Origin: Phyllobates terribilis
Lineage: Eukaryota
NCBI RefSeq assembly: GCF_046119375.1
Contig: NW_027362761.1
Span: 60,016,001-60,080,000 of the forward strand
Length of the DNA: 64,000 bases
Direction of reading: 5' to 3'
Part shown: positions 1-62,130 of the stretch, one piece after another
Numbering within the stretch: the first letter of the stretch is position 1
Layout: every line of letters begins with the position of its first letter
Program-made: the position numbers and the translations under genes
Notes under the pieces: model-generated
What the model was told of the DNA's origin: nothing
The model's input: only the letters and a program-made list of their open reading frames with translations
Database searches by the model: none

Positions 1-1387
1 TAAAAGGTCGGTTTTACTGGGTTGGAATGCGGAGCTCCATAGAGAGATGGTGCCGAGACTGTGGACCCTGTAGCCTCAGAAGGAAAGACTAAGGCAGCCA
101 AAAGGCACCCCTGCAACCCATCAAGACAACTCGGCCCTTAGAGATCGTGGCCTTGGATCATGTCAAGCTGTCACCCAGCAGGTCAGGATACTCCTATGCC
201 CTGACCATGGTGGATCACTACTCCCGGTTCCTGGTGGTCGCCCCGTCAAGGATCTGACGGCAGAAAATGCAGCGAAAACGTTTCAGGCATACTTCTGCAG
301 GCTCCATGGATACCCGGAGCAGGTGCTGACAGATCAAGGCTCAGCTTTTGAAGCCGAATTGTTCAAGGAGTTCTGCCATCTGTACGGATGTAAAAAGATC
401 CGGACTACACCGTACCACCCCCAAACCAACGGTCTCTGTGAAAAGATGAATAACATCGTCATCGACCTGCTGAAGACCTTACCACTAGAGGAGAGAAATC
501 AGTGGCCAGACCTCCTACCTGACCTGGTAGATCTGTACAACCACATACCTGAGAGTTCCACCAATTGTACTCCAGCATATCTCATGCGAGCAAGACCCAG
601 AAAGTTGCCCATGGACCTGGAGCTTGGTGTAGTAGAACCCGAAGCAGATATGTCCACTGAGGACTGGGACACGACCAGACAGGAGCAGTACAGAAGAGTA
701 CAGGCCTGTGTCGAAGACAGTCTGAATAGGGTAAGAGACAAGCAGGAAGCTCACTACAATAAAAGTGCTCCAGCAGAACCCTTCACACCAGAAGAAGTGG
801 TGTTAAAGAGAAAGAGAAGGAACCATAAACTTCATGACCAGTGGGAGAGAGAACCTTACACTGTGTTAAAGTCAAGATTCGATAGCAGGAAGACCTGTCT
901 AATTACCAAGGACGGAGGAAGAACAACTGTAATGGTATCAAGGGACCACCTGAAGTTGTGTCCACACCTGCTAAAGCCCCAAGAAGAAGAGCCTCTCATC
1001 ATACCGGAGGAGCCTAAAGAAGCAGTGATACACACTGAATTAGGAGATTTCCCGGCAGATTGACCCAAAATAGGAGGAGCGGTGATAATACCTGTAATCC
1101 CCTTTTTCCAGCAGCCAGAAGACCCTCTACAGCAAGAAGAACCTATAAGTGCTCCAGAAGAGCCTGCTCAAGAAGAATCCCCGGAACAAGGATCCCCGGT
1201 TGGAGCAGAGCAAGAAGGCCCAGCCAATGGTACACTTGCCAGTCCCATGGAGAGGTTAAGGCAGTATTACGACCTACCCACACATAAAATTGACAGGGTA
1301 ACAGACACAGAGACCATCCACACTCCCGTACTACGTAGATCCACACGTAGCATCAAAGGCCAGGCCCCTGTTAGGTTTAGCGAATAA
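1..1387 (+). pseudogene. Gypsy integrase C-terminal region, disrupted
   Basis: In-frame TAA near 90, a 1-bp frameshift near 240, and TGG>TGA at 1061-1063. ORFs 323-1063 and 1082-1387 are in the same frame. Ends LRRSTRSIKGQAPVRF, similar to LRRSTRATRGQLPARW in copy B. Confidence 0.9.
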
Positions 1388-1909
1388 GTAGAGATACCTA
1401 CAGTATAAATAGTTGCCCCTGGGGTATATTATAATTGTGAAATTGCCATGTATTTAATTATTGTTGTGTTTTGCCTTGCTTATGGACAATATAGGTGATA
1501 TGGACACTTTTCTATTGTATTTAGTCACCCGTAAGGGTATATATATCTATAAAAGACCCTGTGGCTGAGGACTGTGAGCAGCCCAAAAACTATTCATGTA
1601 CATAATTGCACTCCCTGGAGTGCCTTGTTACTGACCACTGAACAAAAACCCATTTGGCGTAGCGGAAGACGTGGTCCATCACCTGGATCACCTATGCCCT
1701 GCAGCCACGCCCAGGGCCTACGTGGAGGGTTTGCGGATGGGTCCCTCATGATACTTATCTACTTTTGATGAAAAGGACACCAGGTTAGGGGACTTGCTGT
1801 AGCCATATTGTTATTATTGTAAATATTAATGTAATTGTTATTATTGTTGTTTAACTTGTTTTTGCAAAAATGCTTCAGTCCAGGAGTACTGAGTGTTACT
1901 AGGGGGGAA

Positions 1910-2910
1910 TGTGGCGCCCTGCTGCGCATGGTGCCACAGAACCTAGAAGGGTGCATAGATGGATTTCTCCACAAGAGGCCCTCACTACATGCAAACACCT
2001 CCACCTTCCACCTCATACCAGCAGAGGGAGCCCTGATAGGGATATATAAAGGGAAGGTGGAGCCAGGCAGTTCAGTTCAGTCTTGAGAATAGTTTCAGTT
2101 TACAGTGTGCTCAGACAGAGTGAGAGCAGCACGTAGGCTGCTGTGTGAGGCAAGCTACGCCTCCAGCAGTACTGAAGCCTAGTGAGGGCCCCGAGCGTGG
2201 CCGAAGGCGAGAGGAAGAAAGGAGTCAAAAAGGGGGCAGAGGAGCATACCAGGCTCACCCCAGTATATCTACCGGACACCGGGTCCGAGTCTACAGGGAC
2301 CCTTTACGCCCAGTATGGTTATCCTAAATCCCAGGAGGACTACAAGTCCCTGGCAAACCTGAAGCTAGACACGTACAGGACCAGGAACCACGAAGGCTCT
2401 GATGTCCAGGGAAAGTGGTTACCAACCGGAGGTCCTACTTCAGAGCAACAGGTGGAGTAAAAAGCAAGACACATAAGCTAGGCACAGTTACAGGCTGGCC
2501 AGGAGCTTACACAGAGGCAGACACGGATCAGGAGGCCTTATACACGCTCCCTGGGGAGAAGTCCAAAAGTGCGCCCTTCACCTAGAGTACCCTGGACCGC
2601 ATCTACCAGCTGTACCAGTAAAGGTAACAAAGCAAAACCCCCTGTCTCTGTCCGTTACTCCGGCCGCGCTATTATATCTCTACCAGCACCACAACGCCCA
2701 GCGCACCCACCATCTATCTATCTACACTGCCCTGAGGCCCGCTCCACCTGTGGGGAGCTGTACCATCTTTAGCTGCCTTGTCACCTGCCTAAGAGGACTG
2801 CTGCAGCGCTGGTGACCTTCACCTGACACCACAGGTGGCGTCACGAATTTCTCTGAACTTTATTAGCAATCGCTACCCCTTTTGTGCACTGTCCGCCCTG
2901 GGCCAGCCAC

Positions 2911-2956
<46 letters not shown>

Positions 2957-4627
2957 TACAGACCAAAAGTTTGGACACACCTTCTCATTAAAGATTTTTC
3001 TGTATTTTCATGACTATGAAAATTGTACATTCACACTGAAGGCATCAAAACTATGAATTAACACATGTGGAATTATATACTTAACAAAAATGTGTGAAAC
3101 AACTGAAAATATGTCTTAAATTCTAGGTTCTTCAAAGAAGCCACCTTTTGCTTTGATGACTGCTTTGCACACTCTTGGCATTCTCTTGATGAGTTTCAAG
3201 AGGTAGTCACCGGAAATGATTTTCACTTCACAGGTGTGCCCTGTCAGGTTTAATAAGTGGGATTCCTTGCCTTATAAATGGGGTTGGGACCATCAGTTGT
3301 GTTGTGCAGAAGTCTGGTGGATACACAGCTGCTAGTCCAACTGAAAAGACTGTTAGAATTTGTATTATGGCAAGAAAAAAGCAGCTAAGTAAAGAAAAAC
3401 GAGTGGCCATCATTACTTTAAGAAATTAAGGTCAGTCAGTGCGAAAAATTGGGAAAACTTTGAAAGTGTCTCCAAGTGCAGTTGCAAAAACCATCAAGCC
3501 CTACAAAGAAACTGTCTCACATGAGGACCGCCCCAGGAAAGGAAGACCAAGAGTCACCTCTGCTTCTGAGGATAAGTTTATCCGAGTCACCAGCCTCAGA
3601 AATCGCAGGTTAACAGCAGCTCAGATTAGAGACCAGGTCAATGCCACACAGAGTTCTAGCAGCAGACAAATCTCTATAACAACTGTTAAGAGGAGACTTT
3701 GTGTAGCAGGCCTTCATGGTAAAATAGCTGCTAGGAAACCAGGACAGGCAACAAGCAGAAGAGACTTGTTTGGGCTAAAGAACACAAGAATGGACATTAG
3801 ACCAGTGGAAATCTGTGCTTTGGTCTGATGAGTGCAAATTGAGATCTTTGGTTCCAAGCACCATGTCTTTGTGCGACGCAGAAATGGTGAACGGATGGAC
3901 TCTACATGCCTGGTTCCCACCGTGAAGCATGGAGGAGGAGGTGTGATGGTGTGGGGGGCTTTGCTGGTGAAACTGTTGGGGATCTATTCAAAATTGAAGG
4001 CTTACTGAACCAGCATGGCTACCACAGCATCTTGCAGCGGCATGCTATTCCATCCGGTTTGCGTTTAGTTGGACCATCATTTATTTTTCAACAGGACAAT
4101 GACCCCAAACACACATCCAGGCTGTGTAAGGGCTATTTGACCAAGAAGGAGAGTGATGGGGTGCTACGCCAGATGACCTGGCCTCCACAGTCACCAGACC
4201 TGAACCCAATCGAGATGGTTTGGGGTGAGCTGGATCGCAGAGTGAAGGCAAAAGGGCCAACAAGTGCTAAGCATCTCTGGGAACTCCTTCAAGATTGTTG
4301 GAAGACCATTTCCGGTGACTACCTCTTGAAGCTCATCAAGAGAATGCCAGGAGTGTGCGAAGCAGTCATCGAAGCAAAAGGTGGCTACTTTGAAGAACCT
4401 AGAATATAAGACATATTTTCAGTTGTTTCACACTTTTTTGTTAAGTATATAATTCCCCAATGTGTTAGTTCATACTTTTGATGCCTTCAGTGTGAATGTA
4501 CAATTTTCATAGTCATGAAAATACAGAAAAATCTTTAAATGAGAAGGTGTGTCCAAACTTTTGGTCTGTACTGTATATATATATATATATACTGTCCCCA
4601 AACAGTGAGGCCCCCGGGGGCGCAACA
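1910..4627 (+). repeat. 3' LTR of family 1 (about 1044 bp once the Tc1 and TA runs are removed)
   Basis: Starts TGTGGCGCCC after the PPT and ends GGGCGCAACA (inverted match with 1 mismatch). TATATAAA at 2043-2050 and AGTAAA at 2617-2622 occupy positions equivalent to those in LTR A. Confidence 0.75.
2954..4573 (+). mobile_element. Tc1-like DNA transposon (CAGTACAGACC family), defective transposase
   Basis: TIRs of about 270 bp, CAGTACAGACCAAAAGTTTGGACAC...GTGTCCAAACTTTTGGTCTGTACTG. Transposase from ATG 3367 has stops and frameshifts; motifs FQQDNDPKH and SPDLNPIE are present. Flanked by (TA)19 and (TA)9. Confidence 0.95.
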
Positions 4628-10449: not shown

Positions 10450-11442
10450 TGTGACACCCCAGGGGTCTGGTTGCCACAGTGATAGAGATATTACGTCTGA
10501 GAGCAGGTGGGAGGTCCTTTGGTCAAGGATCCTGTGCATGCCACACCTCCTGCCCAGTCTTGGGAGGGGAAGAACTTCCCCTATATAAACCCGGGGCTGA
10601 AGCAGGGTTAGCAGTCAAGGAGAGTAGAGACAAGAAACAGTCACAGGAAGAAACAGCAGAAGCTCAGTGGGAGCAATACTACTACAAGTCAGGGGCTGGC
10701 AGCTGCAGAGCTCGCCCTGACTGAGAAGATTTCTTACCGGACCCGGAGTCCGAGGCTGTGGGGACTAACTCCTACCCAGCAGCAGAATCCGTCAGGCAGG
10801 GGATTTCAGGTCCTCTGGCCAAGAAGCCCGAAGGCACGGTCACACGCGTGGGACCAGCACCGCCATCGTGGAGCGGAAGCCATTAGAAGGCCCCGAGTCA
10901 CCGGCCATACGGGTGAGCACCACACGGTACACTCAGGGACGTGGGCTACTTATACCCGCTTCTAGCAAGGTAGCCAGAAGAGTACAGTCAGTTTGGGAGG
11001 CCTACAACTCCACCTGGCCAGGGGAGATCCCATCTGCTCAAGGACTGACCAGGCCCCAATCGCTAGCCAGTACTCCGGGAGGGTCTATCATTGTCACCAG
11101 TAAAGACCCTGAACTACACAGTACCGTCTCCGAGTGGTTCCTGCTACCCCCATCATCCACATCTGCTGCCCTGAGGCCATACCCCTCCCGTTGGGGGTTA
11201 TACCATCTACGCTGCACCATCCATCCACCGGCCTCAGCGGACTGTCCTGCAGCGGCAGCTCCATAGCTGCATTCAACGGGTGGCGTAGTCGTACAACATC
11301 TACCGCCGATACAGCGCCACTTAGTCTGACTCCCTGGGCACGGACCGGGTCACCGCCACGAGACTACAACCCTCAACAGATCCGGCTCCGGGTAAGCTCC
11401 CGCATGCGCAACGCTGCGCGACACGGGCCCAGGGGTGCGTCA
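10450..11442 (+). repeat. 5' LTR of copy A
   Basis: TGTGACACCCC...GGGGTGCGTCA. TATATAAA at 10582-10589 and AGTAAA at 11099-11104. Three substitutions seen versus the 3' LTR. Confidence 0.97.
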
Positions 11443-11447
11443 ACTTT

Positions 11448-11465
11448 TGGCGTAGTCGGCAGGAT
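11448..11465 (+). promoter_or_regulatory. Primer-binding site complementary to the tRNA-Ser 3' end
   Basis: TGGCGTAGTCGGCAGGAT is the reverse complement of ATCCTGCCGACTACG-CCA, the 3' end of vertebrate tRNA-Ser(AGA/UGA class) as recalled. It starts 5 nt after the LTR. Confidence 0.9.
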
Positions 11466-11532
11466 CTCGTGCCCGCAACCACCGGGTACTGCGTGCCTGA
11501 AAAAGACTGTTCAAACTTACCAGTGGTGAAGA

Positions 11533-11660
11533 TTCCCGCCATCCAGCGCCATCTTCTACCTTCTTCCCGCCATCCGCGAAGTTTTCCCGCCATCCGGCGC
11601 CATCTTCAGCCTTCTTCCCGCCATACGTGGAGTTTTCCCGCCATTGGACGCCATCTTGAG
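11533..11660 (+). repeat. 51-bp tandem repeat in the Gypsy leader (about 2.5 units)
   Basis: CGCCATCTT at 11547, 11598 and 11649 (period 51). Eight CGCCAT copies in total. Also present in copy B at about 29260-29390. Confidence 0.9.
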
Positions 11661-11883
11661 GACGCCGCGCGGGAAGAAGAGGGGCGTGGACTCCGAAAGC
11701 GCGCGAGAACTGAAGCCCCGCCTCACGTCCGGACGTTGCGTAAGGTCCTGGAAGGAGCCCAGCAGACGCCGACGTCACAGGAGCGCGACGGAAGGTCCTC
11801 AACCCTGACGATCCACTGAGGAGCCGCGGCCTACGGAAGAGGATCATCGCAAGGTAGGCCACGGTCCACTAGGGGGGAGAAGG

Positions 11884-12844
11884 ATGTCGGATACGGAGGA
11901 GAGCTTCACTGCCTCAACCCCCGCCAGCGCTACCGCTGCTGCAGTTATGCCCTTCACCATGCCCTATATCCCGGGAGCAGCTTGGCTACCCCAGTACTCA
12001 GGGGAGTCACATACCCTGCATGACTTTAGAGAAAAGCTGGATAGCCTCTTCCATGTGTACCCCCTCACAGAAGAGCAAAAAGTGAGCATCCTGGTGGCCC
12101 AACTAACCGGGGCAGCCAAAAGGGAAGTAAAATCCTGGCCACCTGGGAGGAAGACTGTCGCAGGGATACTAACCCGGCTGAAGGACACCTTTGATACCCG
12201 CACCTCAGCCGAGATTAAGCTTAGATTCTACGGGTGCAAGCAGCGAGCGCATGAGAGTATAAGGGACTATGCACTAAACCTACAAGAGGCCCTGAGGGCC
12301 ATTAAGCAGACCGACCCTGATGGAGTGGGAAACGAGGACAGGCTGTTGACCGAACAGTTTATAGAGGGACTATATTGTAATACCCACCGAACCCAGTTGC
12401 GGGCAATGGCCTTGCAGGATCCCCAAGGACAGAGCCATCCGGGTGCTCCGAGAACCGGCACCAGGTGGCGTTGTGACCCACAGGTGCCCCACTACCACTT
12501 ACCACCAGGAGGCGGCGCCCTTGTCGGCAGGGCCTGTGGGAGCTGATGCGCAGGCTTTGGACAATGACCCGGCTCCAGACCTACACCATCAGGTCCAAGA
12601 GCTAGCTAAGAGCGTTGCTGCGCTAACCCGAACTGTGCAGTCTTTACAGGTTTCCACTGCAGGGAAGATCCAGCTGGCATCCGGACCGGAGGACATCCCG
12701 TGGCGTCGACCAAGGAGGACCCCACCGGCCAGAGGAAGACCCAGTGACCGATACAGCGAGGACGGACGACCCATCTGCCGCCGCTGCAATCAACCCGGAC
12801 ATATGGCAAGGTACTGTTCTTTAAACGGACACAACCTGGGGTAG
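11884..12844 (+). pseudogene. gag of copy A, frameshifted by a 20-bp deletion
   Basis: Relative to B, ATCTGGACTTTGCACAGTTC is missing after 12424. The CCHC knuckle CRRCNQPGHMARYC is retained in the downstream frame. Confidence 0.92.
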
Positions 12845-12878
12845 AGGGCCAACCCCCAGGAAAAAGATCACCAGGCCC
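12820..12878 (+). promoter_or_regulatory. Programmed -1 ribosomal frameshift signal (U UUA AAC plus predicted pseudoknot), copy A
   Basis: The heptamer at 12820-12826 is in gag phase, and a -1 shift reads through into the pol frame (RTQPGVEG...RYVGGRPV). Stems CCTGGGG/CCCCAGG and GGGCC/GGCCC. Confidence 0.85.
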
Positions 12879-12900
12879 ATCGAACTGGCGCGACAGATAT

Positions 12901-15900
12901 GTGGGAGGACGTCCAGTCTTGCCTGTGGTACTGGATGGCATTCCCATGAGTGCCCTACTGGACACCGGGTCACAGGTCACCACCATCCCGTACGTGCTCT
13001 TTAAGCAATACTGGAATGACTCGGATATTACCCGCTACCCTGACGACGACTTGAGTATCATCGCCAGCAATGGCCAGCCCGTGCCACAGATCGGATTTAA
13101 AGAAGTGACCATCAAAATCGGTAGAGTCGAACTGGCAGCACAGGGACTGATCATTGTAGATATTGACAAACATGAGAGTCACCCAAAAATAACTCTAGGA
13201 ACTAATGTAATTGAAAATTGTCTTGCAGAGGTGATTTTCCTTCTACAGCAGGTTGCCAAGAACGCCAGTTCCGGCGAGCAGCGGGTGCTCCAGAAAGAGA
13301 TCCGGGCACTGATGCGACGGCAACAGGTGGAACTCTCCGGCGGTGAGATTGGTAGCGTAAGAATGTGTGACCCTTTTCCTATTGCCATGCCCCCAAAAAG
13401 TGAAATGATGATTTGGTGCCGGGCAGCTATTGGTCTGAGAGGTAGAGATTACCAGGCAATGGTAGAACCAGTTTACTCAGACAGTAGGCCCACCATCTTG
13501 ACAGCACGGGGGGTGGTTAATGTACGCCATGGGAGGGTGCCCGTTCGCATAATCAATATCGGGAAGAGGGAAGTGTACCTGCCCCGGTATGCCACGCTAG
13601 CCAAATTATATACCATTAACCAAAATGCTATACAATCTGTGGAACCCTTGCCTCCATCTCACCCGGAGGAAGGTAACGGCTCTAAGAAAACAAAGGAGGA
13701 CTGGTGTCAGCAACTACATTTGGGTACTGACTCCACTCCCTCACATCAGAAACAGGGAGTCTATCGGGTGGTTCAAGAGTACGAGAGAGTGTTTAGTAAA
13801 CACCCGTTAGACTTCGGGCGAGTCAAGGGGGTAGAACACCACATCCCCACGGGAGACCATCCTCCCATAAAAGAGAGGTATCGACCCGTACCCCCTGCAC
13901 ACTACCAACACGCCAAGGGGATGCTTAGAGACATGAAGGAGGCTGGGGTGATCAGGGATAGCTGTAGCCCCTGGGCAGCTCCACTAGTTTTAGTCAGAAA
14001 AAAAGACAACACCATGAGGATGTGTGTAGATTACCGGAAAATCAACCGTATCACACACAAGGATGCGTACCCCTTACCAAGGATAGAGGAGTCATTGGCT
14101 GCTTTAAGATCTGCTAACTTCTTCTCTACCTTGGATCTCACTAGCGGGTACTGGCAGGTTCCTGTAGCAGAGGCGGACCGGGAGAAGACCGCATTCACCA
14201 CCCCGATGGGACTTAGCGAGTTCACCTGCATGCCGTTCGGACTCTGCAATGCACCAGGAACCTTCCAACGACTAATGGAGTGTTGTCTGGGCCACAGAAA
14301 CTTCGAGACGGTCCTGTTGTACCTGGACGATGTCATCGTATATTCCAAGACGTATGAGGACCACCTGAAACACCTGGCGGAAGTGTTCGAAGCTCTGGCA
14401 AGTTACGGCCTAAAGGTGAAACCCTCCAAGTGTCACCTCCTGAAACCAAAGGTGCAGTACCTGGGACACGTGGTGAGCGCTGACGGAGTGGCTCCCGACC
14501 CTGATAAGATCACCGCAATTAAGGAATGGCCAAGCCCCTCCAGCGTAAAAGAAGTGCGGCAGTTCCTCGGGTTGGTAGGCTACTACCGAAGGTTTATTCA
14601 CGGTTTCACCAAAAAGGCAGCACCTATGCAGGACCTCCTGATAGGCCAGTCCCAGAAGGCCAAGAACCAGAAGCCGCCCTTCAAATGGGAGGAGCTGGAA
14701 GAAGAGTCCTTCCGCCAGCTGAAGATGGCCCTCACGGGGGACGAAATCCTGGCGTACCCGGATTATAGCCAGCCCTTTATCCTCTACACCGACGCCAGTA
14801 ACATCGGGCTAGGAGCCGTACTGTCCCAGATCCAGCAGGGGAAGGAACGAGTAATCGCCTACGCCAGCCGAAAACTGCGACCCACCGAAAGGAACCCCGA
14901 GAATTACAGCTCATTTAAGTTAGAGTTCCTGGCCGTAGTATGGGCAGTCACCGAGCGCTTTAAGCATTACCTCGCTTCTTCCCGGTTCACCGTGTACACG
15001 GATAACAACCCGTTGACACACCTGGACACGGCAAGACTCGGTGCCCTGGAGCAGAGGTGGATGGCCCGTCTGTCCAACTTCGAGTTCACAATCAAATACC
15101 GGGCAGGACGCTCCAATACCAACGCGGACGCCCTGTCCAGGATGCCCAACCTGCCGGACGGAGGAGAAGATCCGGAGGGACTGGAAGAAGTTGAACTCCC
15201 TGCGTTCCACCGTCATGGGACTATCCAGTATTCCCACCGGGTAAGGAGTAAGCAGGCTGCTACGTTGAACCCCTTACCCCACTACAACTGGGCGGAAACG
15301 CAAGACAGCGACCCTGCCGTCCGACTGGTGAAGGAGATGCTGACTCGGCCGGAGGCTCGCCTTGAACCAGACGCTCCGGAGGAAGCCAAACAACTATGGG
15401 CAGAGAAGAGTCGACTGTTCCTTTACAAAGGGAAGTTGTGCCGCAGAATGGTTAACTCCCAGACGCATGAATTACTCTGGCAAGTAGTGGTGCCACGAAG
15501 AGACGCAGCCATGGTGATGGAGGCATACCACGACGGAGCTGGACACTTCGGGTGGAAGAAGCTGGAGTTCCTGCTGCGCGAGCGGTTCCACTGGGTAGGC
15601 ATGAGGGGAACCATCGAGAAGTGGTGCAGAGACTGTGGCCCGTGCAACCTGAGAAGGAAGGACCGTGACAGCAGAAGACTCCCCTGCAGTCCATCGTCAC
15701 CCGGCAACCGTTGGAACTGGTAGCCTTGGATCATGTAAAACTGACCCCAAGCAGAAGTGGCTACGTCTACGCGTTAACCATCGTGGATCATTACTCCCGG
15801 TTTCTGGTTGTCGTCCCCGTCAAGGACTTAACGGCTCAAACAGCAGCTAGAGCCTTCCAGCAGCACTTTTGCCGTCCACACGGGTACCCGGACCAAGTGC

Positions 15901-16955
15901 TGACGGACCAGGGACCTGCCTTTGAAGCGGAGGTCTTCCAGGAATTCTGCAATCTGTATGGCTGCCGGAAGATAAGGACGACACCCTACCATCCGCAAAC
16001 TAATGGACTTTGTGAGAAAATGAACCAGGTGGTAATGGATCTTCTAAAAACGTTGCCCCTGGAAGAACGCAGTCTGTGGCCTGAGAAGTTGCCCGATCTG
16101 GTGGACCTATACAACCACATCCCGGTAGGTTCCACCAACTGTACCCCGGCTTACCTAATGAGGGCAAGACCTGGTAAGTTACCTGTTGACCTGGAAATGG
16201 GAGTCCTGACACCCGAGGACACTTCACCAGAAGCAGACTGGGACACAGAGAGGCAGCAGCAGTACCGGAGAGTACAGGAGAGCGTGGAGCGAAGTCTCTG
16301 TCAGGCTAGGGAAAGACAAGAGAAAACTTACAACCAGTATGCTCCCGCTGTTCCCCTGGTACCCGGAGAGCAGGTCTTGAAGAGGAAGAGACGGCTCCAC
16401 AAGTTGGACGACCAGTGGGAAAAGGACCCGTACACCGTACTGCCCTCAAGCCACGAGAACCCGAAGGTTTGTACCATCAGTAAAGACGGAGGGGAAACCA
16501 CAGCTATTGTATCCCGGGACCACCTGAAGAAGTGTCTCGAACAACTGAGGAACCCTGAAGAGGAACAAGAAGACCATCGACCCGTAGAGGAAAGGGAAGA
16601 TATGGTTAGTACTGTGCTCGGGAACTTCCCTCGGTCTTGGACTCAAGTCAATGGTGCAGTTGTGGTACCCGTACTCACCTTCCTCCAACCAGCATCCCAA
16701 GCACCTACGGAGCAACAGGTAGAGCTGGAAGAACAGCCGGTCTAGGAGGCAGAAGACTCCACACAAGCAGAACAGGAGGATCAACCCTCTGCTTATAGTG
16801 AGCCTGCCGTACCCCTAGTGAGACAAAGAGCCGGTAGACAGCTGCCCAGTTTACCCTTGACAGCTCCTACACCCTGTAGTTCAGGGCCAGACAGTCAGCT
16901 CCGTAGGTCCACTAGGGCCACTAGAGGCCAGTTACCCGCACGCTGGAGGATTTGA
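12901..16955 (+). pseudogene. pol (PR-RT-RNase H-IN) of copy A, disrupted
   Basis: Motifs LLDTGS, YLDD, LYTDAS and HHCC are present. A 1-bp deletion near 15672 and CAG>TAG at 16743-16745 relative to B. Confidence 0.93.
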
Positions 16956-17314
16956 AGTGTATAAATTGTTTTATTTATGTTTATCTGTGTATTGTTGCTT
17001 GTGTATAATTTTGTGTTTCCAGTTATTTTTAGGAGTCCTTGGTGGATTTACCGGGAATCCTTGTACATAGTTGGAGCGTAACCCAGGATGGACTAGAGAC
17101 TGTTAAGGACTCGGGGTAGGACAGACCCCTACCTGGTTACGTCTCCCTGTTTTGGTGAAATGGACACCTTGCTTTCTTCAAAGACTGCACCCGGTTGCGG
17201 ACACGCCGCAACCATCTTATGTGTTTTTCTTATTGTATTGTTATTGTTATACCTTGTTATGTTTTTCTAAAAAATATGTTTAGTCCCGGAGTACTAAATT
17301 TCACTAGGGGGGAA

Positions 17315-18307
17315 TGTGACACCCCAGGGGTCTGGTTGCCACAGTGATAGAGATATTACGTCTGAGAGCAGGTGGGAGGTCCTTTGGTCAAGGATCCTGT
17401 GCATGCCACACCTCCTGCCCAGTCTTGGGAGGGGAAGAACTTCCCCTATATAAACCCGGGGCTGAAGCAGGGTTAGCAGTCAAGGAGAGTAGAGACAAGA
17501 AACAGTCACAGGAAGAAACAGCAGAAGCTCAGTGGGAGCAATACTACTACAAGTCAGGGGCTGGCAGCTGCAGAGCTCGCCCTGACTGAGAAGATTTCTT
17601 ACCGGACCCGGAGTCCGAGGCTGTGGGGACTAACTCCTACCCAGCAGCAGAATCCGTCAGGCAGGGGATTTCAGGTCCTCTGGCCAAGAAGCCCGAAGGC
17701 ACGGTCACACGCGTGGGACCAGCACCGCCATCGTGGAGCGGAAGCCATTAGAAGGCCCCGAGTCACCGGCCATACGGGTGAGCACCACACGGTACACTCA
17801 GGGACGTGGGCTACTTATACCCGCTTCTAGCAAGGTAGCCAGAAGAGTACAGTCAGTTTGGGAGGCCTACAACTCCACCTGGCCAGGGGAGATCCCATCT
17901 GCTCAAGGACTGACCAGGCCCCAATCGCTAGCCAGTACTCCGGGAGGGTCTATCATTGTCACCAGTAAAGACCCTGAACTACACAGTACCGTCTCCGAGT
18001 GGTTCCTGCTACCCCCATCATCCACATCTGCTGCCCTGAGGCCATACCCCTCCCGTTGGGGGTTATACCATCTACGCTGCACCATCCATCCACCGGCCTC
18101 AGCGGACTGTCCTGCAGCGGCAGCTCCATAGCTGCATTCAACGGGTGGCGTAGTCGTACAGCATCTACCGCCGATACAGCGCCACTTAGTCTGACTCCCT
18201 GGGCACGGACTGGGTCACCGCCACGAGACTACAACCCTCAACAGATCCGGCTCCGGGTAAGCTCCCGCATGCGCAACGCTGCGCGACACAGGCCCAGGGG
18301 TGCGTCA
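17315..18307 (+). repeat. 3' LTR of copy A
   Basis: Direct repeat of 10450-11442 (offset 6865), preceded by PPT AGGGGGGAA. Confidence 0.97.
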
Positions 18308-22611: not shown

Positions 22612-23583
22612 TGACGCGCCCCTGGGCCTGTGTCGCGCTGCGGTGCGCACGCGGGAGCTTACCCGGAGCCGGATCCGTGGAGGGTTGTAATCTCGTGGCG
22701 GTGACCCGGTCCGTGCCCAGGGAGTCAAACTAGACGGCAGTCTATTAGTAGTAAATAGTTGATGACTACGCCACCCGTTGAGTGCAGCCAGGAAGCTGCT
22801 GCTGCAGGGCAGACCGCTGAGGCCGGTGGTAGGATTGTGCAGCGTGATAGTATAACCCCCAACGGGAGGGGTATGGCCTCAGGGCAGCCGACGTGGATGA
22901 TGGGGGTAGCAGGAACCACTCAGAGACGGTACGGTGTAGTTCAGGGTCTTTACTGGTAACAACGACAGACCCTCCCGGAGTACTTGCTAGCAAACGGGGC
23001 CTGGTCAGTCTTTGAGCAGATGGGATCTCCCCTGGCCAAGCGTAGTTGTAGGCCTCCCAAACTGACTGTACTCTTCTGGCTACCTTGCTAGAAGCTGATG
23101 TAAGTAGCCCACGTCCCTGAGTGTACCGTGTGGTGCTCACCCGTATGGCCGGTGACTCGGGGCCTTCTAATGGCTTCCGCTCCACGATGGCGGTGCTGGT
23201 CCCACGCGTGTGACCGTGCCTTCGGGCTTCTGGGCCAGAGGACCTGAAATCCCCTGCCCGACGGATTCTGCTGCTGGGTAGGAGTTAGTCCCCACAGCCT
23301 CGGACTCCGGGTCCGGTAAAGAATCTTCTTAGTCAGGGCGAGCTCTGTAGCTGCCAGCCCCTGACTCCTTGTAACTCTGCTGTTTCCTATGCTGCTTCTC
23401 TTCTCCACTCTCCTTGTCTGACTCACCCTGCCTCAGCCCCGGGTTTATACAGGGGAAGTTCTTCCCCTCCCAAGACTGGGCAGGAGGTGTGGCATGCACA
23501 GGATCCCTGACCAAAGGACCTCCCACCTGCTCTCAGACATAATATCTCTATCACTGTGGCAACCAGACCCCTGGGGTGTCACA
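22612..23583 (-). repeat. 3' LTR of copy B
   Basis: Direct repeat of 29480-30451 (offset 6868). Confidence 0.97.
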
Positions 23584-23941
23584 TTCCCCCCTAGTGAAAT
23601 TTAGTACTCCGGGACTAAACACATTTAGAAAAACATAACAAAGTATAACAATAACAATACTATAAGAAAAACACATAAGATGGTTACGGCGTGTCCGCAA
23701 CCGGATGCAGTCTTTGAAGAAAAGCAAAGGTGTCCATTTCACCAACACAGGGAGACGTAACCAGGTAGGGGTCTGTCCTACCCCGAGTCCTTAACAGTCT
23801 CTAGTCCATCCTGGGTTACGCTCCAACTATATACAAGGATTCCCGGTAAATCCACCAAGGTTTCCTAAAAATAACTAGAAACACAAAATTATACACAAGC
23901 AACAAGACACAGAAAAACATAAATAAAACAATTTATACACT

Positions 23942-29479: not shown

Positions 29480-30451
29480 TGACGCGCCCCTGGGCCTGTG
29501 TCGCGCTGCGGTGCGCACGCGGGAGCTTACCCGGAGCCGGATCCGTGGAGGGTTGTAATCTCGTGGCGGTGACACGGTCCGTGCCCAGGGAGTCAAACTA
29601 GACGGCAGTCTATTAGTAGTAAATAGTTGATGACTACGCCACCCGTTGAGTGCAGCCAGGAAGCTGCTGCTGCAGGGCAGACCGCTGAGGCCGGTGGTAG
29701 GATTGTGCAGCGTGATAGTATAACCCCCAACGGGAGGGGTATGACCTCAGGGCAGCCGACGTGGATGATGGGGGTAGCAGGAACCACTCAGAGACGGTAC
29801 GGTGTAGTTCAGGGTCTTTACTGGTAACAACGACAGACCCTCCCGGAGTACTTGCTAGCAAACGGGGCCTGGTCAGTCTTTGAGCAGATGGGATCTCCCC
29901 TGGCCAGGCGTAGTTGTAGGCCTCCCAAACTGACTGTACTCTTCTGGCTACCTTGCTAGAAGCTGATGTAAGTAGCCCACGTCCCTGAGTGTACCGTGTG
30001 GTGCTCACCCGTATGGCCGGTGACTCGGGGCCTTCTAATGGCTTCCGCTCCACGATGGCGGTGCTGGTCCCACGCGTGTGACCGTGCCTTCGGGCTTCTG
30101 GGCCAGAGGACCTGAAATCCCCTGCCCGACGGATTCTGCTGCTGGGTAGGAGTTAGTCCCCACAGCCTCGGACTCCGGGTCCGGTAAAGAATCTTCTTAG
30201 TCAGGGCGAGCTCTGTAGCTGCCAGCCCCTGACTCCTTGTAACTCTGCTGTTTCCTATGCTGCTTCTCTTCTCCACTCTCCTTGTCTGACTCACCCTGCC
30301 TCAGCCCCGGGTTTATACAGGGGAAGTTCTTCCCCTCCCAAGACTGGGCAGGAGGTGTGGCATGCACAGGATCCCTGACCAAAGGACCTCCCACCTGCTC
30401 TCAGACATAATATCTCTATCACTGTGGCAACCAGACCCCTGGGGTGTCACA
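29480..30451 (-). repeat. 5' LTR of copy B
   Basis: TGTGACACCCC...GGGGCGCGTCA on the minus strand. The TATA-like box is TGTATAAA. Confidence 0.97.
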
Positions 30452-36079: not shown

Positions 36080-36125
36080 GATATGCACACTACTAATGCT
36101 AAGTGATAAAAGAGGTGATCACGTA

Positions 36126-37747
36126 CAGTACAGACCAAAAGTTTGGACACACCTTCTCATTTAAAGATTTTTCTGTATTTTCATGGCTATGAAAATTGTA
36201 CATTCACACTGAAGGCATCAAAACTATGAGTTAACACATGTGGAATTATATACTTAACAGAAAAGTGTGAAACAACTGAAAATATGTCTTATATTCTAGG
36301 TTCTTCAAAGTAGCCACCTTTTGCTTTGATGACTGCTTTGCACACTCTTGGCATTCTTTTGATGAGCTTCAAGAGGTAGTCCCCGGAAATGGTCTTCCAA
36401 CAATCTTGAAGGAGTTCCCAGAGATGCTTAGCACTTGTTGGCCCTTTTGTCTTCACTCTGTGGTCCAGCTCACCCCAAACCATCTCGATTGGGTTCAGGT
36501 CTGGTGACTGTGGAGGCCAGGTCATCTGACGTAGCACCCCATCACTCTCCTTCTTGGTCCACTAGCCCTTACACAGCCTGGAAGTGTGTTTGGGGTCATT
36601 GTACTGTTGAAAAATAAATGATGGTCCAGCTAAACGCAAACCGGATGGAATAGCATGCCGCTGCAAGTTACTGTGGTAGCCATGCTGGTTCAGTATGCCT
36701 TCAATTTTGAATAAATCCCCAACAGTGTCACCAGCAAAGCACCCCCACACCATCACACCTCCTCCTCCATGCTTCACGGTGGGAACCAGGAATGTAGAGT
36801 CTATCCGTTCACCTTTTCAGCGTCGCACAAAGACACAGTGGTTGGAACCAAAGATCTCAAATTTGAACTCATCAGACCAAAGCACACTGGTCTAATGTCC
36901 ATTCCTTGTGTTCTTTAGCCCAAAAAAGTCTCTTCTGCTTGTTGCCTGTCCTAAGCAGTGATTTCCTAGCAGTTATTTTACCATGAAGGCCTGCTGCACA
37001 AAGTCTCCTCTTAACAGTTGTTGTAGAGATGTGTCTGCTGCTAGAACTCTGTGTGGCATTGACCTGGTCTCTAATCTGAGCTGCTGTTAACCTGCGATTT
37101 CTGAGGCTGGTGACTTGGATAAACTTATCCTCAGAAGCAGAGGTGACTCTTGGTCTTCCTTTCCTGGGGCGGTCCTCATGTGAGCCAGTTTCTTTGCAGC
37201 GCTTGATGGTTTTTGCAATTGCACTTGGGGACACTTTCAAAGTTTGCCCAATTTTTCGGACTGACTGACCTTCATTTCTTAAAGTAATGATGGCCACTCA
37301 TTTTTCTTTACTTAGCTCCTTTTTTCTTGCCATAATACAAATTCTAACAGTCTATTCAGTAGGACTATCAGCTGTGTATCCACCAGACTTCTACACAACA
37401 TAACTGATGGTCCAAACCCCTTTTATAAGGCAAGAAATCCCACTTATTAAACCTGACAGGGCACACCTGTGAAGTGAAAACCATTTCCTGTGACTACCTC
37501 TTGAAGCTCATCAAGAGAATGCCAAGAGTGTGCAAAGCAGTCATCAAAGCAAAAGGTGGCTACTTCGAAGAATCTAGAATATAAGACATATTTTCAGTTT
37601 TTTCACACTTTTTTGTTAAGTATATAATTCCACATGTGTTAATTCATAGTTTTGATGCCTTCAGTGTGAATGTACGATTTTCATAGTCATGAAAATACAG
37701 AAAAATCTTTAAATGAGAAGGTGTGTCCAAACTTTTGGTCTGTACTG
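36126..37747 (-). mobile_element. Tc1 (CAGTACAGACC family), defective
   Basis: Both TIRs and TA TSDs are present. The transposase is broken into the ORFs 36872-37297, 36562-36777 and 36289-36537. Confidence 0.95.
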
Positions 37748-38685
37748 TATGCGCATTACCTCTCCATTCACACAGTTGTAATCATAGGCATCGCAGCGGA
37801 TAAACTCTCATCGATCATACAGTTAATTTATCAACTATTCTGTGGGTAGGTGATAAATTATGTCCATTGGATAACCATTTAACTAAAGGCTAGTGAAGAA
37901 ATCGTTACACTGTATTGAACTCGTATATGTTTTTAAGTTAGAAAATATCACTCCTGCAAAAGCGCATATCTTGTATATATTTTAGACTAATGAAAACAAC
38001 TGGTTAAAATATATAACTTTCACCAACTGTTCAAATATAACTGATGTATAAATTATAACTAATCTTTCTGTATGTTAATGATATTTGTTCTTGATGAGCA
38101 TGTTTCACTTTAGTAATAAAAGCTCTTGAAATGTATATTGGACACATTAGCCATGCTCTTATTTCCGGAAACAAATAATTCCAGATAATCTACAATGGGA
38201 TATAAATTTTGGAGAATGAAACCAAAAATAGCGCTTAACAATCAGTGAGTTATGAGCATGTGCATCCTTCCTTCTCTAATTTTAATGAGTACACTAGCCT
38301 GTGTATTACTAGAAACATTTCTTTTTTTTTTGCATTCAACACTCTAGAGTAGAATTTTTCTTCCACACTCCATTATACACATTGTATCAAACTGAGATCT
38401 AATTTGCTAAATTAGTCGGAGATGTCAGCTTTACCCAGCGTGTGGCTATATAAACAATGCATAACTGTATGTAGAATAGGCAGAAATAATATAAACAATT
38501 GATGACAAATGTTATTTTACCGGATATGTATATTTGTATGGATTTGCTTGAGTTCTGTTGTGTTGAGAGGTACAGATGTGACCTGTGGTATAGATATTAA
38601 AAATTGTTGAATGACTGCTATATCCAGCTGTAGACTAACCATGTCTTTCCGTTGGCGGTAACCAACAGTAAGAGATTTGCTAGAC

Positions 38686-43407: not shown

Positions 43408-43454
<47 letters not shown>

Positions 43455-43469
43455 ATATATATATATATA

Positions 43470-45097
43470 CAGTACAGACCAAAAGTTTGGACACACCTTC
43501 TCATTTAAAGATTTTTCTGTATTTTCATGACTTTGAAAATTGTACATTCACACTGAAGGCATCAAAACTATGAATTAACACATGTGGAATTATATACTTA
43601 ACAAAAAAAGTGTGAAACAACTGAAAATATGTCTTATATTCAAGGTTCTTCAAAGTAGCCACCTTTTGCTTTAATGACTGCTTTGCACACTCTTGGCATT
43701 CTCTTGATGAGCTTCAAGAGGTAGTCACCGGAAATGGTCTTCCAACAATTTGAAGGAGTTCCCAGAGATGCTTAGCACTTGTTGGCCCTTTTGCCTTCAC
43801 TCTGTGGTCCAGCTCACCCCAAACCATCTCGATTGGGTTCAGGTCTGGTGACTGTGGAGGCCAGGTCATCTGGCGTAGCACCCCATCACTCTCCTTCTTG
43901 GTCAAATAGCCCTTACACAGCCTGGAGGTGTGTTTGGGGTCATTGTCCTGTTGAAAAATAAATGATGGTCCAACTAAACGCAAACCGGATGGAATAGCAT
44001 GCCGCTGCAAGATGCTGTGGTAGCCATGTTGGTTCAGTATGCCTTCAATTTTGAATAAATCCCCAACAGTGTCACCAGCAACGCACCCCCACACCATCAC
44101 ACCTCCTCCTCCATGCTTCACGGTGGGAACCAGGCATGTAGAGTCCAACCGTTCACCTTTTCTACATCGCACAAAGACACGGTGGTTGGAACCAAAGATC
44201 TCAAATTTGGACTCATCAGACCAAAGCACAGATTTCCACTGGTCTAATGTCCATTCCTTGTGTTCTTTAGCCCAAACAAGTCTCTTCTGCTTGTTGCCTG
44301 TCCTTAGCAGTGGTTTCCTAGCAGATATTTTACCATGAAGGCCTGGTGCACAAAGTCTCCTCTTAACAGTTGATGAAGAGATGTGTCTGCTGCTAGAACT
44401 CTGTGTGGCATTGACCTGGTCTCTAATCTGAGCTTTTGTTAACCTGCGATTTCTGAGGCTGGTGACTCGGATAAACTTACCCTCAGAAGCAGAGGTGACT
44501 CTTGGTCTTCCTTTCCTGGGGCGGTCCCTCATGTGAGCTAGTTTCTTTGTAGCGCTTGATGGTTTTGCAACTGCACTTGGGGACACTTTCAAAGTTTTCC
44601 CAATTTTTCGGACTGACTGACCTTCATTTCTTAAAGTAATGATGGCCACTCGTTTTTCTTTACTTAGCTGCTTTTTTCTTGCCATAATACAAATTCTAAC
44701 AGTCTATTCAGTAGGACTATCAGCTGTGTATCCACCAGACTTCTGCACAACACAACTGATGGTCCCAACCTCATTTATAAGGCAAGAAATCCAACTTATT
44801 AAACCTAACAGGGCACACCTGTGAAGTGAAAACCATTTCCGGTGACTACCTCTGGAAGCTCATCAAGAGAATGCCAAGAATGATCAAAGCAGTCATCAAA
44901 GCAAAAGGTGGCTACTTTGAAGAACCTAGAATATAAGACATATTTTCAGTTGTTTCACACTTTTTGGTTAAGTATATAATTCCACATGTGTTAATTCATA
45001 GTTTTGATGCCTTCAGTGTGAATGTACAATTTTCATAGTCATGAAAATACAGAAAAATCTTTAAATGAGAAGGTGTGTCCAAACTTTTGGTCTGTAC

Positions 45098-45099
<2 letters not shown>
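43470..45099 (-). mobile_element. Tc1 (CAGTACAGACC family), nearly intact transposase
   Basis: Both TIRs are present, with (TA)n on both flanks. ORF 43714-44685 has a compensating frameshift pair near codons 42-53 and a C-terminal frameshift. Confidence 0.95.
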
Positions 45100-45133
<34 letters not shown>

Positions 45134-46359
45134 TGTGTAAATACAGTACATACAGTCAGTGTCAGACTGAAGAACATTGGGCCCACCATAGGATTTGATT
45201 CTGAGGGCCCACCTTTCTCCCCCACTCAAGAGCCCCATAGCAACTGCAAGGTTTGCACTATGAACTCTCCTAAAGAAAAGACCAGGGTCCATCGGAGGAT
45301 TCTCCGGTTCTCTGGTGGGCTAGTCCATCCTTGCATATAGTCATGGCCGAAAGTGTTGGAACCCTTGAAATTGTTCCAGAAAATGAAGTATTTCTCCCAG
45401 AAAATTATTGCAATTACACGTTTTGTTATACATATGTTTATTTCCTTTCTATGTATAGAGAAAAAAAGGCAAATTGGACGTAATTTATTACAAACCCCCA
45501 AAATGGGCAGGAAAAAATTAGATAGATTATTATTAGATGGATATAGACAGCACTACAGGATATTTGATGAAGTCAGGGGGTACCTTTATTCACTCACATA
45601 ATGTTGATGATGAGATCCAGGGGACAAAGGATCGCATGGCTTGCACTAAAATTAATGCCTTTGACTAGTGCTGCTACCTTTTTGTTTTACACTGTTGTAC
45701 CAACCAGGGTAATTTATTCAAAGGTCCAACCTTCATCTATTGATCATTTAGGGTATGTTCAAACCCAGGAAAATCGTTGCCAAAATCCCTTCAACAGCAC
45801 CATCCAGCTGAATGGGGTTTACTGAAACTTCTGTGCTTGCCAGCAAAACATCCCAATCTAGATGTATGGGCTAATATGTAGGAGCAGAAATATTTCCAGA
45901 AAAATTGCAGTGTGAGAATATACCATAATTTTAGCTTTCCAGTTACAGTGCTTTCTAAAACACTGCTTTCCTTGAGTACTGCTAATACAAATGTGTTAGG
46001 CCTATTATGTTACAAAAACATCAGTATTTATAGAGGTATGCAATATTTTGTCATCAGCCTTAAAGGGAACCTGTTATCAGGATTGTATACTCCAAATTGA
46101 TGACAGGAATGTAAAGGCACTGTAATATTTAATAAATCCATACCTTTTTGTAGAAATCCTTTTTGCTGAGCTATAGTTAAAATCTAATGGAAATGATTCG
46201 CAAGTGCAGTGGGTTGGGACAATGCACTTGCTTTTCTTCTTTTCCCGACCCGCAGCCTGCCTGCTGTCTTTAACTGACAGGTCGCTTTTCTTTCAATAAC
46301 CTGCTTTCCCTATGTAGGAGGGTGGCGGGCTAAGAAAACGCTGAGTCGAGATGGGGTTA

Positions 46360-58330: not shown

Positions 58331-58441
58331 GCCAATAGTTTTGGCCTAATACCACAGTTTGGCCACTCAGCTCTGCTCGGTTCCCATCCATTGTTTTTTT
58401 GTGCAAACAACTCCAGAGTTGTGAATTAGTTAACCACCAAA

Positions 58442-61400: not shown

Positions 61401-62130
61401 TGCTCCTGGATGCGCAACACACATGAGTGCCTTCTTGCTGCACTACCTGCAACATGACCCTCGAATTGTGAGAATTAGAAATAATCCTGACTACTGGGTT
61501 GCCACACTGTTAGATCCCCGGTACAAAAGTAAATTTGCAGAAATTATTCCTGCCATAGAAAGGGATGCACGCATGCAGGAGTATCAGCAGAGACTGTTGC
61601 AGAATCTTACATGTGCTTTTCCACAAAACACCAGTGGTGCACATAGTGAATCTCACAGTTCCAACTTGCCAACCGTGGGACCGTCGAGTGTTCATCACTC
61701 AAACCTTAACAGAACCACAGTATCCGCTGGTAACATCAATTTTGCGGAATCATTTCACCACTTTTTTAGCCCATCCTTTGCAAGGCCACAGGAGACAAGA
61801 AGTCTGACACATAGTCAACGCCTAGAGACGATGGTACAGGAGTATCTCCAAGTAAACATTGAAGCCATGACTGTGTCACTGGACCATTGCTCTTTTTGGG
61901 CTTCCAATCTGGATAAATGGCCGGAGCTAGCCACTTACGCCTTGGAGATCTTGTCATGCCCCGCAGCCAGCGTTCTGTCTGAACGTGTGTTCAGCGCTGC
62001 TGGTGGTGTGCTGACAGATAAGCGCACACGGCTCTGCACTGATAATGTAGACAGACTCACGTTCATAAAGATGAACAAATCATGGATCCGAAATGACTTT
62101 TCTACCCCTGTGTCATCCTGGGGAGAGTAA
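58442..62130 (+). pseudogene. hAT transposase with BED zinc finger and C-terminal dimerization domain; three frameshifts
   Basis: BED (WAFY...CNIC...RHMDMKH), FTTDTWT, CDNAANL, CIAH (CxxH), DVPTRWNS and SERVFS...FIKMN. Frame changes at about 59995, 60210 and 61400. Confidence 0.92.

Follow-up and report, generated by a model that had tools for sequence, protein, structure and literature searches.

Introduction

We wondered how an LTR retrotransposon that repeats its poly(A) signal at both ends of its RNA might read through the 5' copy and use the 3' one. How the 5' signal is bypassed and the 3' signal used is understood only in a few retroviruses. In retrotransposons, the boundaries of R are described as mostly unknown, and a systematic search for pairings between the sequence preceding the polypurine tract (PPT) and the LTR has been called for (PMC3601003). 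The question is raised by a 64,000-nucleotide stretch of the genome of the frog Phyllobates terribilis (contig NW_027362761.1, positions 60,016,001 to 60,080,000; hereafter the window). According to a preliminary description, a 12-mer just upstream of the PPT is complementary to a site beside the poly(A) hairpin in the LTR and covaries between two Gypsy families, and the duplex would either circularise the genome or mark the 3' LTR for polyadenylation.

Results

The window holds Ty3/Gypsy elements

10450..18307 (+), copy A, full-length Gypsy element with LTRs at 10450-11442 and 17315-18307; frame changes disrupt gag and pol
30451-22612 (-), copy B, full-length Gypsy element of the same family as copy A
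11069..11080 (+), 5' LTR copy of the R-side 12-mer, the partner in a circularisation model
11099..11104 (+), 5' LTR copy of AGTAAA, 3' of the TATA box and presumably read through
11448..11465 (+), primer binding site (PBS)

Copies A and B are 95.5% identical with LTRs of ~990 bp each (copy A: 7,858 bp, LTR ~993), and the stop-to-stop reading frames of copy B span 351 (gag) and 1,398 (pol) amino acids. Two LTRs, a PBS, a PPT and a pol with the Gypsy order of reverse transcriptase (RT), RNase H and integrase place these elements in Ty3/Gypsy (Metaviridae). A further family in the window, family 1, is represented by a 3' fragment with an integrase identity of 67%. Among named relatives, the integrase is nearest to those of frogs and toads, followed by fish and a turtle. 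Gag carries a CCHC knuckle and is possibly PNMA-like (PF14893, E values of 9e-5 and 1.4e-4, under Pfam's curated cut-off). The possibly PNMA-like gag, the RT-RNase H-integrase order and the sizes resemble Barthez, the Ty3/Gypsy lineage listed as the PNMA progenitor, a match by description: Barthez1 measures 7,871 bp with an LTR of 1,116, a gag of 355 and a pol of 1,394 amino acids, and the lineage ranges over ~7.5-7.9 kb with LTRs >1 kb in some, gag of ~355 and pol of ~1,340-1,400 amino acids (PMC3670739, PMC11117352). As compared with such published descriptions, the size profile of the frog elements fits the Barthez lineage. No RNA structure for this lineage was found in the open-access literature searched.

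We take the PBS of copy A to be of the tRNA-Ser type. A tRNA-like pattern for it gave 36 genomic matches, and ARAGORN, run on two of these loci, called a tRNA-Ala in one and nothing in the other. Part of the PBS recurs in U5, ~160-170 nt before the true site (11280-11291, 18145-18156 and 2835-2847; also in L082, L083, L102 and L103), and the letters of this second copy track the PBS type of the family; it is possibly a second primer-pairing site. Copy A is flanked by a 4-bp target duplication (10446-10449/18308-18311) and copy B by a 5-bp one (30452-30456/22607-22611). A Tc1-like element (2919-4592, with relatives at 36124-37750 and 43451-45134) interrupts the final ~40 nt of the family-1 LTR, and hAT transposase remnants, a BED finger and tandem 110-nt repeats occupy positions 58430-62130 of the window.

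The 12-mer is the outermost helix of a larger predicted rod

All eight ranges that had been assigned to the 12-mers and their partners read as the letters claimed. In copy A, 17284-17295 is the exact reverse complement of 17934-17945 and of 11069-11080, and copy B retains both sites (23603-23614 versus 22973-22984 and 29841-29852); within the window, the 12-mer and its complement occur at these six places only. The spacing to AGTAAA is likewise as reported, 18 nt in copy A (17945 to 17964) and 19 nt in family 1 (2597 to 2617).

Folding of the 3' ends predicted nested helices at P of at least 0.95 in copy A, copy B and family 1, and 1-kb windows agreed. The 12-mer is the outermost helix (helix 1) of this larger predicted rod. 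Counting from the start of the LTR (LTR) or the first base of the hexamer (PAS), ~130 nt from just upstream of the PPT into U3 (LTR-35..+90) pair antiparallel with PAS-90..-20 in the prediction; the 3' arm takes up ~70 nt before AGTAAA and ~500 nt are looped out.

17216..17268 (+), U/GU-rich tract preceding the rod and putative upstream enhancer of polyadenylation
17278..17299 (+), local pre-PPT hairpin with a GGA loop, mutually exclusive with helix 1
17284..17295 (+), helix 1, 5' strand (pre-PPT 12-mer); partner 17934-17945; predicted as 17285-95/17934-44, P=0.99
17304..17314 (+), PPT; unpaired in the copy A rod, paired in cluster L004 and in the G group
17327..17337 (+), helix 2, 5' strand (U3); partner 17912-17922; P=0.99
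17366..17377 (+), helix 3, 5' strand (U3); partner 17893-17904; P=1.00
17380..17390 (+), helix 4, 5' strand (U3); partner 17880-17890; P=0.95
17447..17454 (+), TATA box at LTR+132; putative start site near LTR+160
17880..17945 (+), rod 3' arm (helices 4, 3, 2, 1), stopping 18-19 nt short of the hexamer
17945..17975 (+), hairpin with AGTAAA (17964-17969), which probably serves as poly(A) signal
17990..18009 (+), stretch poor in A and leaning to GU/U (PAS+26..+45), putative downstream element
23613-23603/22984-22974, 23571-23561/23006-22996, 23532-23521/23025-23014 and 23518-23506/23040-23028 (-), predicted rod helices of copy B
1878..1970 (+), family-1 5' arm (1878-1890, 1899-1903, 1946-1956, 1960-1970), P 0.99-1.00
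2555..2597 (+), family-1 3' arm; hexamer at 2617-2622

Helix 1 is predicted to comprise 11 bp, its 12th pair (17284/17945) competing with the hexamer hairpin. Family 1 and copy A are alike in the layout of the rod, with largely different letters. Because the 5' arm lies upstream of the putative start site, it would be found only at the 3' end of the element transcript.

Rods are predicted throughout the clade in the frog genome

A pattern for the PPT-LTR junction matched 47,436 times in the 10.6-Gb genome, a control pattern 610 times. We fetched 160 stretches of at most 10 kb each, namely 80 of the first 100 junction matches, 40 divergent-integrase hits and 40 variant-junction hits. Those with the PPT junction of the clade and AGTAAA or AATAAA 560-910 nt inside the LTR (87 of 160) were kept; the 73 dropped stretches were other clades, simple repeats, truncated or interrupted copies, or had no hexamer at that distance. 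Adding copy A, copy B and family 1 from the window brought the set to 90 copies, which at 85% arm identity fell into 26 clusters. As the hexamer was picked by its distance from the LTR start, its conservation is partly circular, and the structural comparison is one of related clusters from a single genome.

Across the clade, the rod is predicted to have ~50 pairs in 4-5 helices. Integrase identity across rod-bearing families was 67-100%, and the rod was also predicted in non-coding derivatives. In group C, at about 50% integrase identity, it was predicted in L064 and absent from L066 and L074. In group D, at about 45%, U3 and R also form a predicted rod, but its 5' arm lies at LTR+140..+225 and so beyond the arm that was tested; this group fails the tests with fixed arms. 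L084 and L085 had no hexamer at the expected place. The length of R varies, with the hexamer at LTR+564..900; the arms stay anchored to the LTR start and to the hexamer. The distance between the hexamer and the outer end of the rod is 18-25 nt in groups A, B and F and ~43-50 nt in G and D, the PPT is predicted to be unpaired in group A and paired in B and G, and the loop sequences of the rod showed no conservation between groups.

A search of Rfam returned a single match at chance level. Among other species, a metagenome scan gave 3 distant loci (29-32%) and a viral scan none. The fetched set also contained unrelated LTR clades (L048, L146, L154, L049 and L053, at 27-31% integrase identity), and in L048 and L053 the pre-PPT sequence is complementary to U3 at about LTR+60..+105, as in Sireviruses. 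A second AATAAA/ATTAAA at LTR+30..+37, in the loop of a U3 hairpin branching from the rod, was present in clusters L004, L039 and L149; its position is HTLV-like, and it is not kept outside these three.

The whole rod, not the 12-mer, is the conserved unit

The preliminary description had treated the 12-mer as the conserved unit. The long-range pairing of a sequence found only at the 3' end with the stretch before the poly(A) signal held up in the predictions across the clade, but the 12-mer itself did not: 25 of the 90 copies carry it exactly, every one in a single cluster (WA), and when swapped alone between clusters it showed little cognate preference, scoring best in its row for 1 of 26. 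In cluster L007, helix 1 has one additional bulged base; in L004 its register is shifted and the PPT pairs too; in L017, L107 and L050 it is weak or nearly lost, and the U3 helices are kept there. In the non-autonomous group G, the same pre-PPT region pairs in another register, ~25 nt further from the hexamer. These predictions indicate that the conserved unit is the whole multi-helix rod. The palindromic AGUACU, which might be thought a dimerisation site, is not kept in clusters L001 and L004 or in group G.

A C-G to A-U compensatory change in family 1 had been taken as a sign of covariation. Both sides have indeed changed, and the pair has three states in the clade: C-G in WA, G-C in L035, L036, L001 and L082, and A-U in the family 1 of the window, L025 and L156. 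L035 and L036 regain the full helix 1 through G-C where WA has C-G. A change from G-C to A-U can, on both sides, come from CpG decay, and read against its own group the family-1 pair is CpG-explicable.

The conservation of the 5' half of the 12-mer is explained by its part in the local GGA-loop hairpin. Predictions place this hairpin 15-35 nt before the PPT in almost every cluster, those of families C and D included (also in L129 and L130), and its stem shows compensatory changes of its own. A similar motif occurs in plant chromoviruses.

Predicted pairing is group-specific and occupies a fixed place

In a positional test, LTR-40..+100 was co-folded with 42-49 windows of 100 nt from the same element. 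A hexamer-proximal window (one of two) ranked first in 19 of 26 clusters, 7 failing the test in this sense, and among the top three in 22 of 26. Two control arms ranked such a window first in 0 of 26 and 1 of 26 clusters (about 31 windows). The claim that the pairing exceeds chance was thus borne out. We read 19 further copies and located the LTR start in 15, of which 8 had the hexamer-proximal window first. Co-folding replaced an earlier duplex-only scan and swap; in 14 of 26 clusters, the best window of that scan had its end no more than 40 nt from the hexamer, and the method was noisy because hairpins inside the arms were forbidden.

In the swap test, mean energies of cognate arms were -36.5 (A), -34.2 (B), -19.2 (E), -22.9 (F), -26.5 (G), -12.9 (C) and -9.7 kcal/mol (D). 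Members of the same group bound nearly like the cognate, and other groups mostly at -5 to -14 kcal/mol; the exceptions, A with B (-25 to -29 kcal/mol, little weaker than cognate pairs) and the arms of E with A (-21 kcal/mol), concern related groups. Group G was discovered after the arms had been fixed. The folding results thus indicate that the arms stay complementary, group-specific and at a fixed place across families.

The plus strand bound better than the minus strand in 21 of 26 clusters, with about 6 G-U among 52 pairs; the arms had been selected on the plus strand, which biases this test toward plus. In their unshifted register, the arms paired in 406 of 507, 232 of 253 and 346 of 440 cells, whereas sliding the register left no more than 252, 142 and 210, an excess that is partly expected because the structure was derived from a member. 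Covariation across the families of this one genome gave the earlier claim modest support: where both sides had changed, pairing was kept in 33 of 60 cases against 25.4 expected (p about 0.03, relatedness ignored and with one reference per group). The signal was clear in group F (7 of 8 against 3.3 expected), and groups ABE (14 of 28) and G (12 of 24) showed no clear column-level excess of kept pairs. One-side changes kept the pair in 72 of 185 cases against 64.8 expected, which is not significant. Of 31 Watson-Crick swaps, 6 are CpG-explicable and 25 are not. We consider it very probable that the rod is a selected structure.

U5 is probably exchanged at the hexamer

AGTAAA is likely the poly(A) signal. 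The A-poor GU/U stretch at PAS+26..+45 follows it, and AATAAA stands in its place in clusters L039 and L149 and in L050. The poly(A) signal of MMTV is AGUAAA as well (PMC12789967). Upstream of the PPT, U content averaged 0.40 at LTR-130..-45 versus 0.29 at LTR-400..-200 (26 clusters); UGUA counts there were low (mean 1.2, none in 5 of 26 clusters).

The autonomous family E and family G, a non-autonomous family with a ~2-kb interior and LTRs of ~1.2 kb, are unrelated upstream (53%) and have U5 in common (94%), with the change-point at PAS+0. Between L017 and L115 or L164-L182, U5 is shared at 90-99% and the junction falls exactly at AGTAAA. Among 19 copies with the shared U5, found with a search pattern that began at the hexamer, 10 had E-type and 9 G-type R arms, and the upstream arm, where located, was of the same type as the R arm. 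From the sequence comparison we infer that U5 was swapped at the hexamer, the trace expected of strand transfer onto an RNA that ends just past it. Near the LTR start, 4 of 17 change-points fell at +159..+179, around the putative start site, and 8 of 17 at -60..-10, close to where the rod has its outer end. In every listed G copy (L105, L109-L116, L128, L133), the hexamer overlaps a splice-donor-like GTGAGT at PAS-3, and the U3 of group G has a strong donor-like site at LTR+73.

A genomic pattern search for poly(A)-tailed retroposed copies after AGTAAA had 0 matches and is uninformative on the RNA end. In sequencing runs guessed to be RNA, contig depth, which is no measure of level, was 10-30 times higher over the pre-PPT/U3 region (17270-17470) than over the R end (17870-18000); two other runs lacked this skew. 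Contigs placed on the element showed no RNA starts or ends.

Discussion

What might the rod be for? Of the two roles proposed for the duplex at the outset, marking of the poly(A) site is, on indirect evidence, most likely and favoured over circularisation. The reading that we put forward, tentatively and with slightly less than even confidence, is that the rod brings the U-rich upstream tract next to the weak AGUAAA, so that the 3' LTR alone is polyadenylated. Transcription would start near LTR+160, giving an R of ~500 nt that ends just past AGUAAA, and the hexamer would therefore be transcribed at both RNA ends. The 5' arm, upstream of the start site, would be present at the 3' end of the RNA alone. 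There the first structure to form would be the local GGA-loop hairpin, the loop of which could nucleate helix 1. With ~500 nt looped out by the rod, the path from the U-rich pre-PPT tract to the weak hexamer would shrink from ~700 nt to some 40-90 nt, so that upstream-element factors could assist CPSF. In transcripts started in the 5' LTR or in solo LTRs, the partner arm would be missing and the signal read through. Against the poly(A) reading, the outer end of the rod is not at a fixed distance from the hexamer (groups G and D lie further), upstream UGUA motifs are scarce, the U-rich tract before the PPT may serve other ends, and a mechanism suppressing the 5' hexamer ~490 nt from the cap, which is still needed, was not found. 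Two known switches that we considered were not supported by the predictions. For an HIV-type switch that occludes the hexamer, predicted accessibility was about equal at the 5' and 3' ends in most of 12 folded copies, with 2 clearly more accessible at the 3' end and 1 less so. For a foamy-type U1 switch, the donor-like site at PAS-160..-190 lies outside the rod, showed no consistent change in predicted access (10 copies) and is missing in clusters L004 and L039.

Alternatively, the 3' pre-PPT/U3 arm might pair with the arm copy of the 5' LTR, so that the packaged RNA is circularised and minus-strand strong-stop DNA is made beside its acceptor. The copy of the arm in the 5' LTR is identical, the arm would be the first part of R to be copied by RT, the U5 swap at the hexamer suggests transfers at the open end of the rod, and the pairing is kept in non-autonomous derivatives; Ty1 provides a precedent (PMC7969010). 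Should RNA 3' ends lie near the TATA box, as the unexplained depth pattern could mean, this would be the sole possible form. The local partner, however, is ~600 nt away and the distant one ~6,200 nt, and the local one wins in the folding model. In the whole-RNA fold of a 3,009-nt non-autonomous copy, the 3' R was chosen (-1173.5 versus -1160.4 kcal/mol when forced onto the 5' R), and the full rod formed at the 5' copy at a cost of 13 kcal/mol in 1,170. Moreover, an R of 500 nt should already supply ample homology for transfer, and the 3' rod would have to open first. We consider circularisation the main rival, if an unlikely one; both pairings may also occur, circularisation following the 3' rod.

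A less probable reading than circularisation is that the rod forms a protein-binding or protective 3' domain, acting in export or stability as RxRE and CTE do, or a switch by which the GGA-loop hairpin and the PPT stay concealed up to packaging or reverse transcription; the rod would then adjoin the hexamer only because the RNA ends there. CCHC knuckles bind GGAG loops, and gag has such a knuckle. The GGA-loop hairpin, predicted before the PPT in nearly all clusters including C and D, covaries on its own and excludes helix 1; inverted repeats of the PPT type also occur in the unrelated L048 and L053. Sireviruses and HIV have inverted repeats that enclose the PPT (PMC2829016, PMC3601003). The pairing state of the PPT, unpaired in group A and paired in B and G, speaks against any fixed display of it, and the lack of a common loop sequence in the rod also counts against this reading. 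Least probable, in our view, is that there is no selected RNA function, the complementarity being inherited or due to chance in GC-rich LTRs, a mirror of CpG decay, or a fold of the single-stranded DNA intermediate. The weak column-level covariation outside group F, the 6 CpG-explicable swaps among 31, the noise of the duplex-only scan and the relatedness of clusters from a single genome fit this view. Yet the ABE, F and G arms do not cross-pair and each pairs internally at the same place, the control arms were flat, and the plus strand with its G-U pairs was favoured in 21 of 26 clusters.

The 3'-LTR poly(A) reading has several relatives among known systems. In HIV-1, the hexamer likewise lies in R at both ends, within a hairpin, and a 3'-only element is brought near by RNA folding, the TAR hairpin spacing the U3 upstream sequence element (USE) from the poly(A) site (PMC2645353). 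Unlike in HIV-1, the 3'-only sequence of the frog element would itself pair with the R end over ~500-700 nt, reaching upstream of the PPT, and the candidate enhancer lies outside the LTR, in contrast to the U3 USE. The Rex response element of HTLV-1 and BLV combines a long R with a long-range fold that shortens the distance between poly(A) elements, in HTLV-1 by a 276-nt fold between a hexamer in U3 and the cleavage site (PMC12789967, PMC2645353); the frog hexamer is instead downstream of the fold and duplicated, and there is no Rex-like gene. In the U1-dependent poly(A) switch of foamy viruses, U3 alters the fold of R at the 3' end only (PMC3694450), whereas the frog donor-like site lies outside the rod.

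Among systems that join RNA ends, HIV-1 is reportedly circularised by long-range complementarity between both ends of its RNA. Such complementarity is also found in CYC5/CYC3 of Ty1, and Ty3 joins its ends through a tRNA bridge; as described, cyclisation of Ty1 and Ty3 relies on unique sequences or a tRNA (PMC7969010, PMC11381356). In contrast to these three systems, one frog arm is in the repeated region, so that a local 3' partner competes. In the PPT inverted repeat of Sirevirus/Copia elements, too, the sequence directly upstream of the PPT pairs with a part of the LTR, there starting ~18-28 nt inside U3 (PMC2829016, PMC3601003); the frog partner sits next to the poly(A) signal, at a distance of 600-850 nt. 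With the helix-1 partner at PAS-30..-20 and the PPT paired in B and G, we rejected a Sirevirus-type repeat with the PPT in its loop.

In the main text of the open-access literature searched, we found no description of a rod joining pre-PPT/U3 sequence to the R end in Gypsy elements. We regard it as a clade-wide predicted RNA structure, a variant of known 3'-end architectures of retroelements, with a putative function. More speculatively, and with a probability that we put below that of the 3' domain, the rod could be a co-evolving two-state clasp of vertebrate Barthez-type elements. At the nascent 3' end it would join the pre-PPT sequence to the poly(A) site, licensing full-length genomic RNA only; in the particle, the arm would swap to the 5' copy of R and circularise the genome for strand transfer, with U3 and R inherited as a locked module and U5 freely exchanged. 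If true, such a clasp would deny 3'-end formation to the 5' LTR and to tens of thousands of solo LTRs. Given about 47,000 junction matches in this genome, a poly(A) signal that depends on sequence outside the LTR would bear on whether solo LTRs truncate host transcripts, and the same rule would bear on why U3 and R evolve together. For these questions, the predicted rod offers a concrete structure with natural variants.
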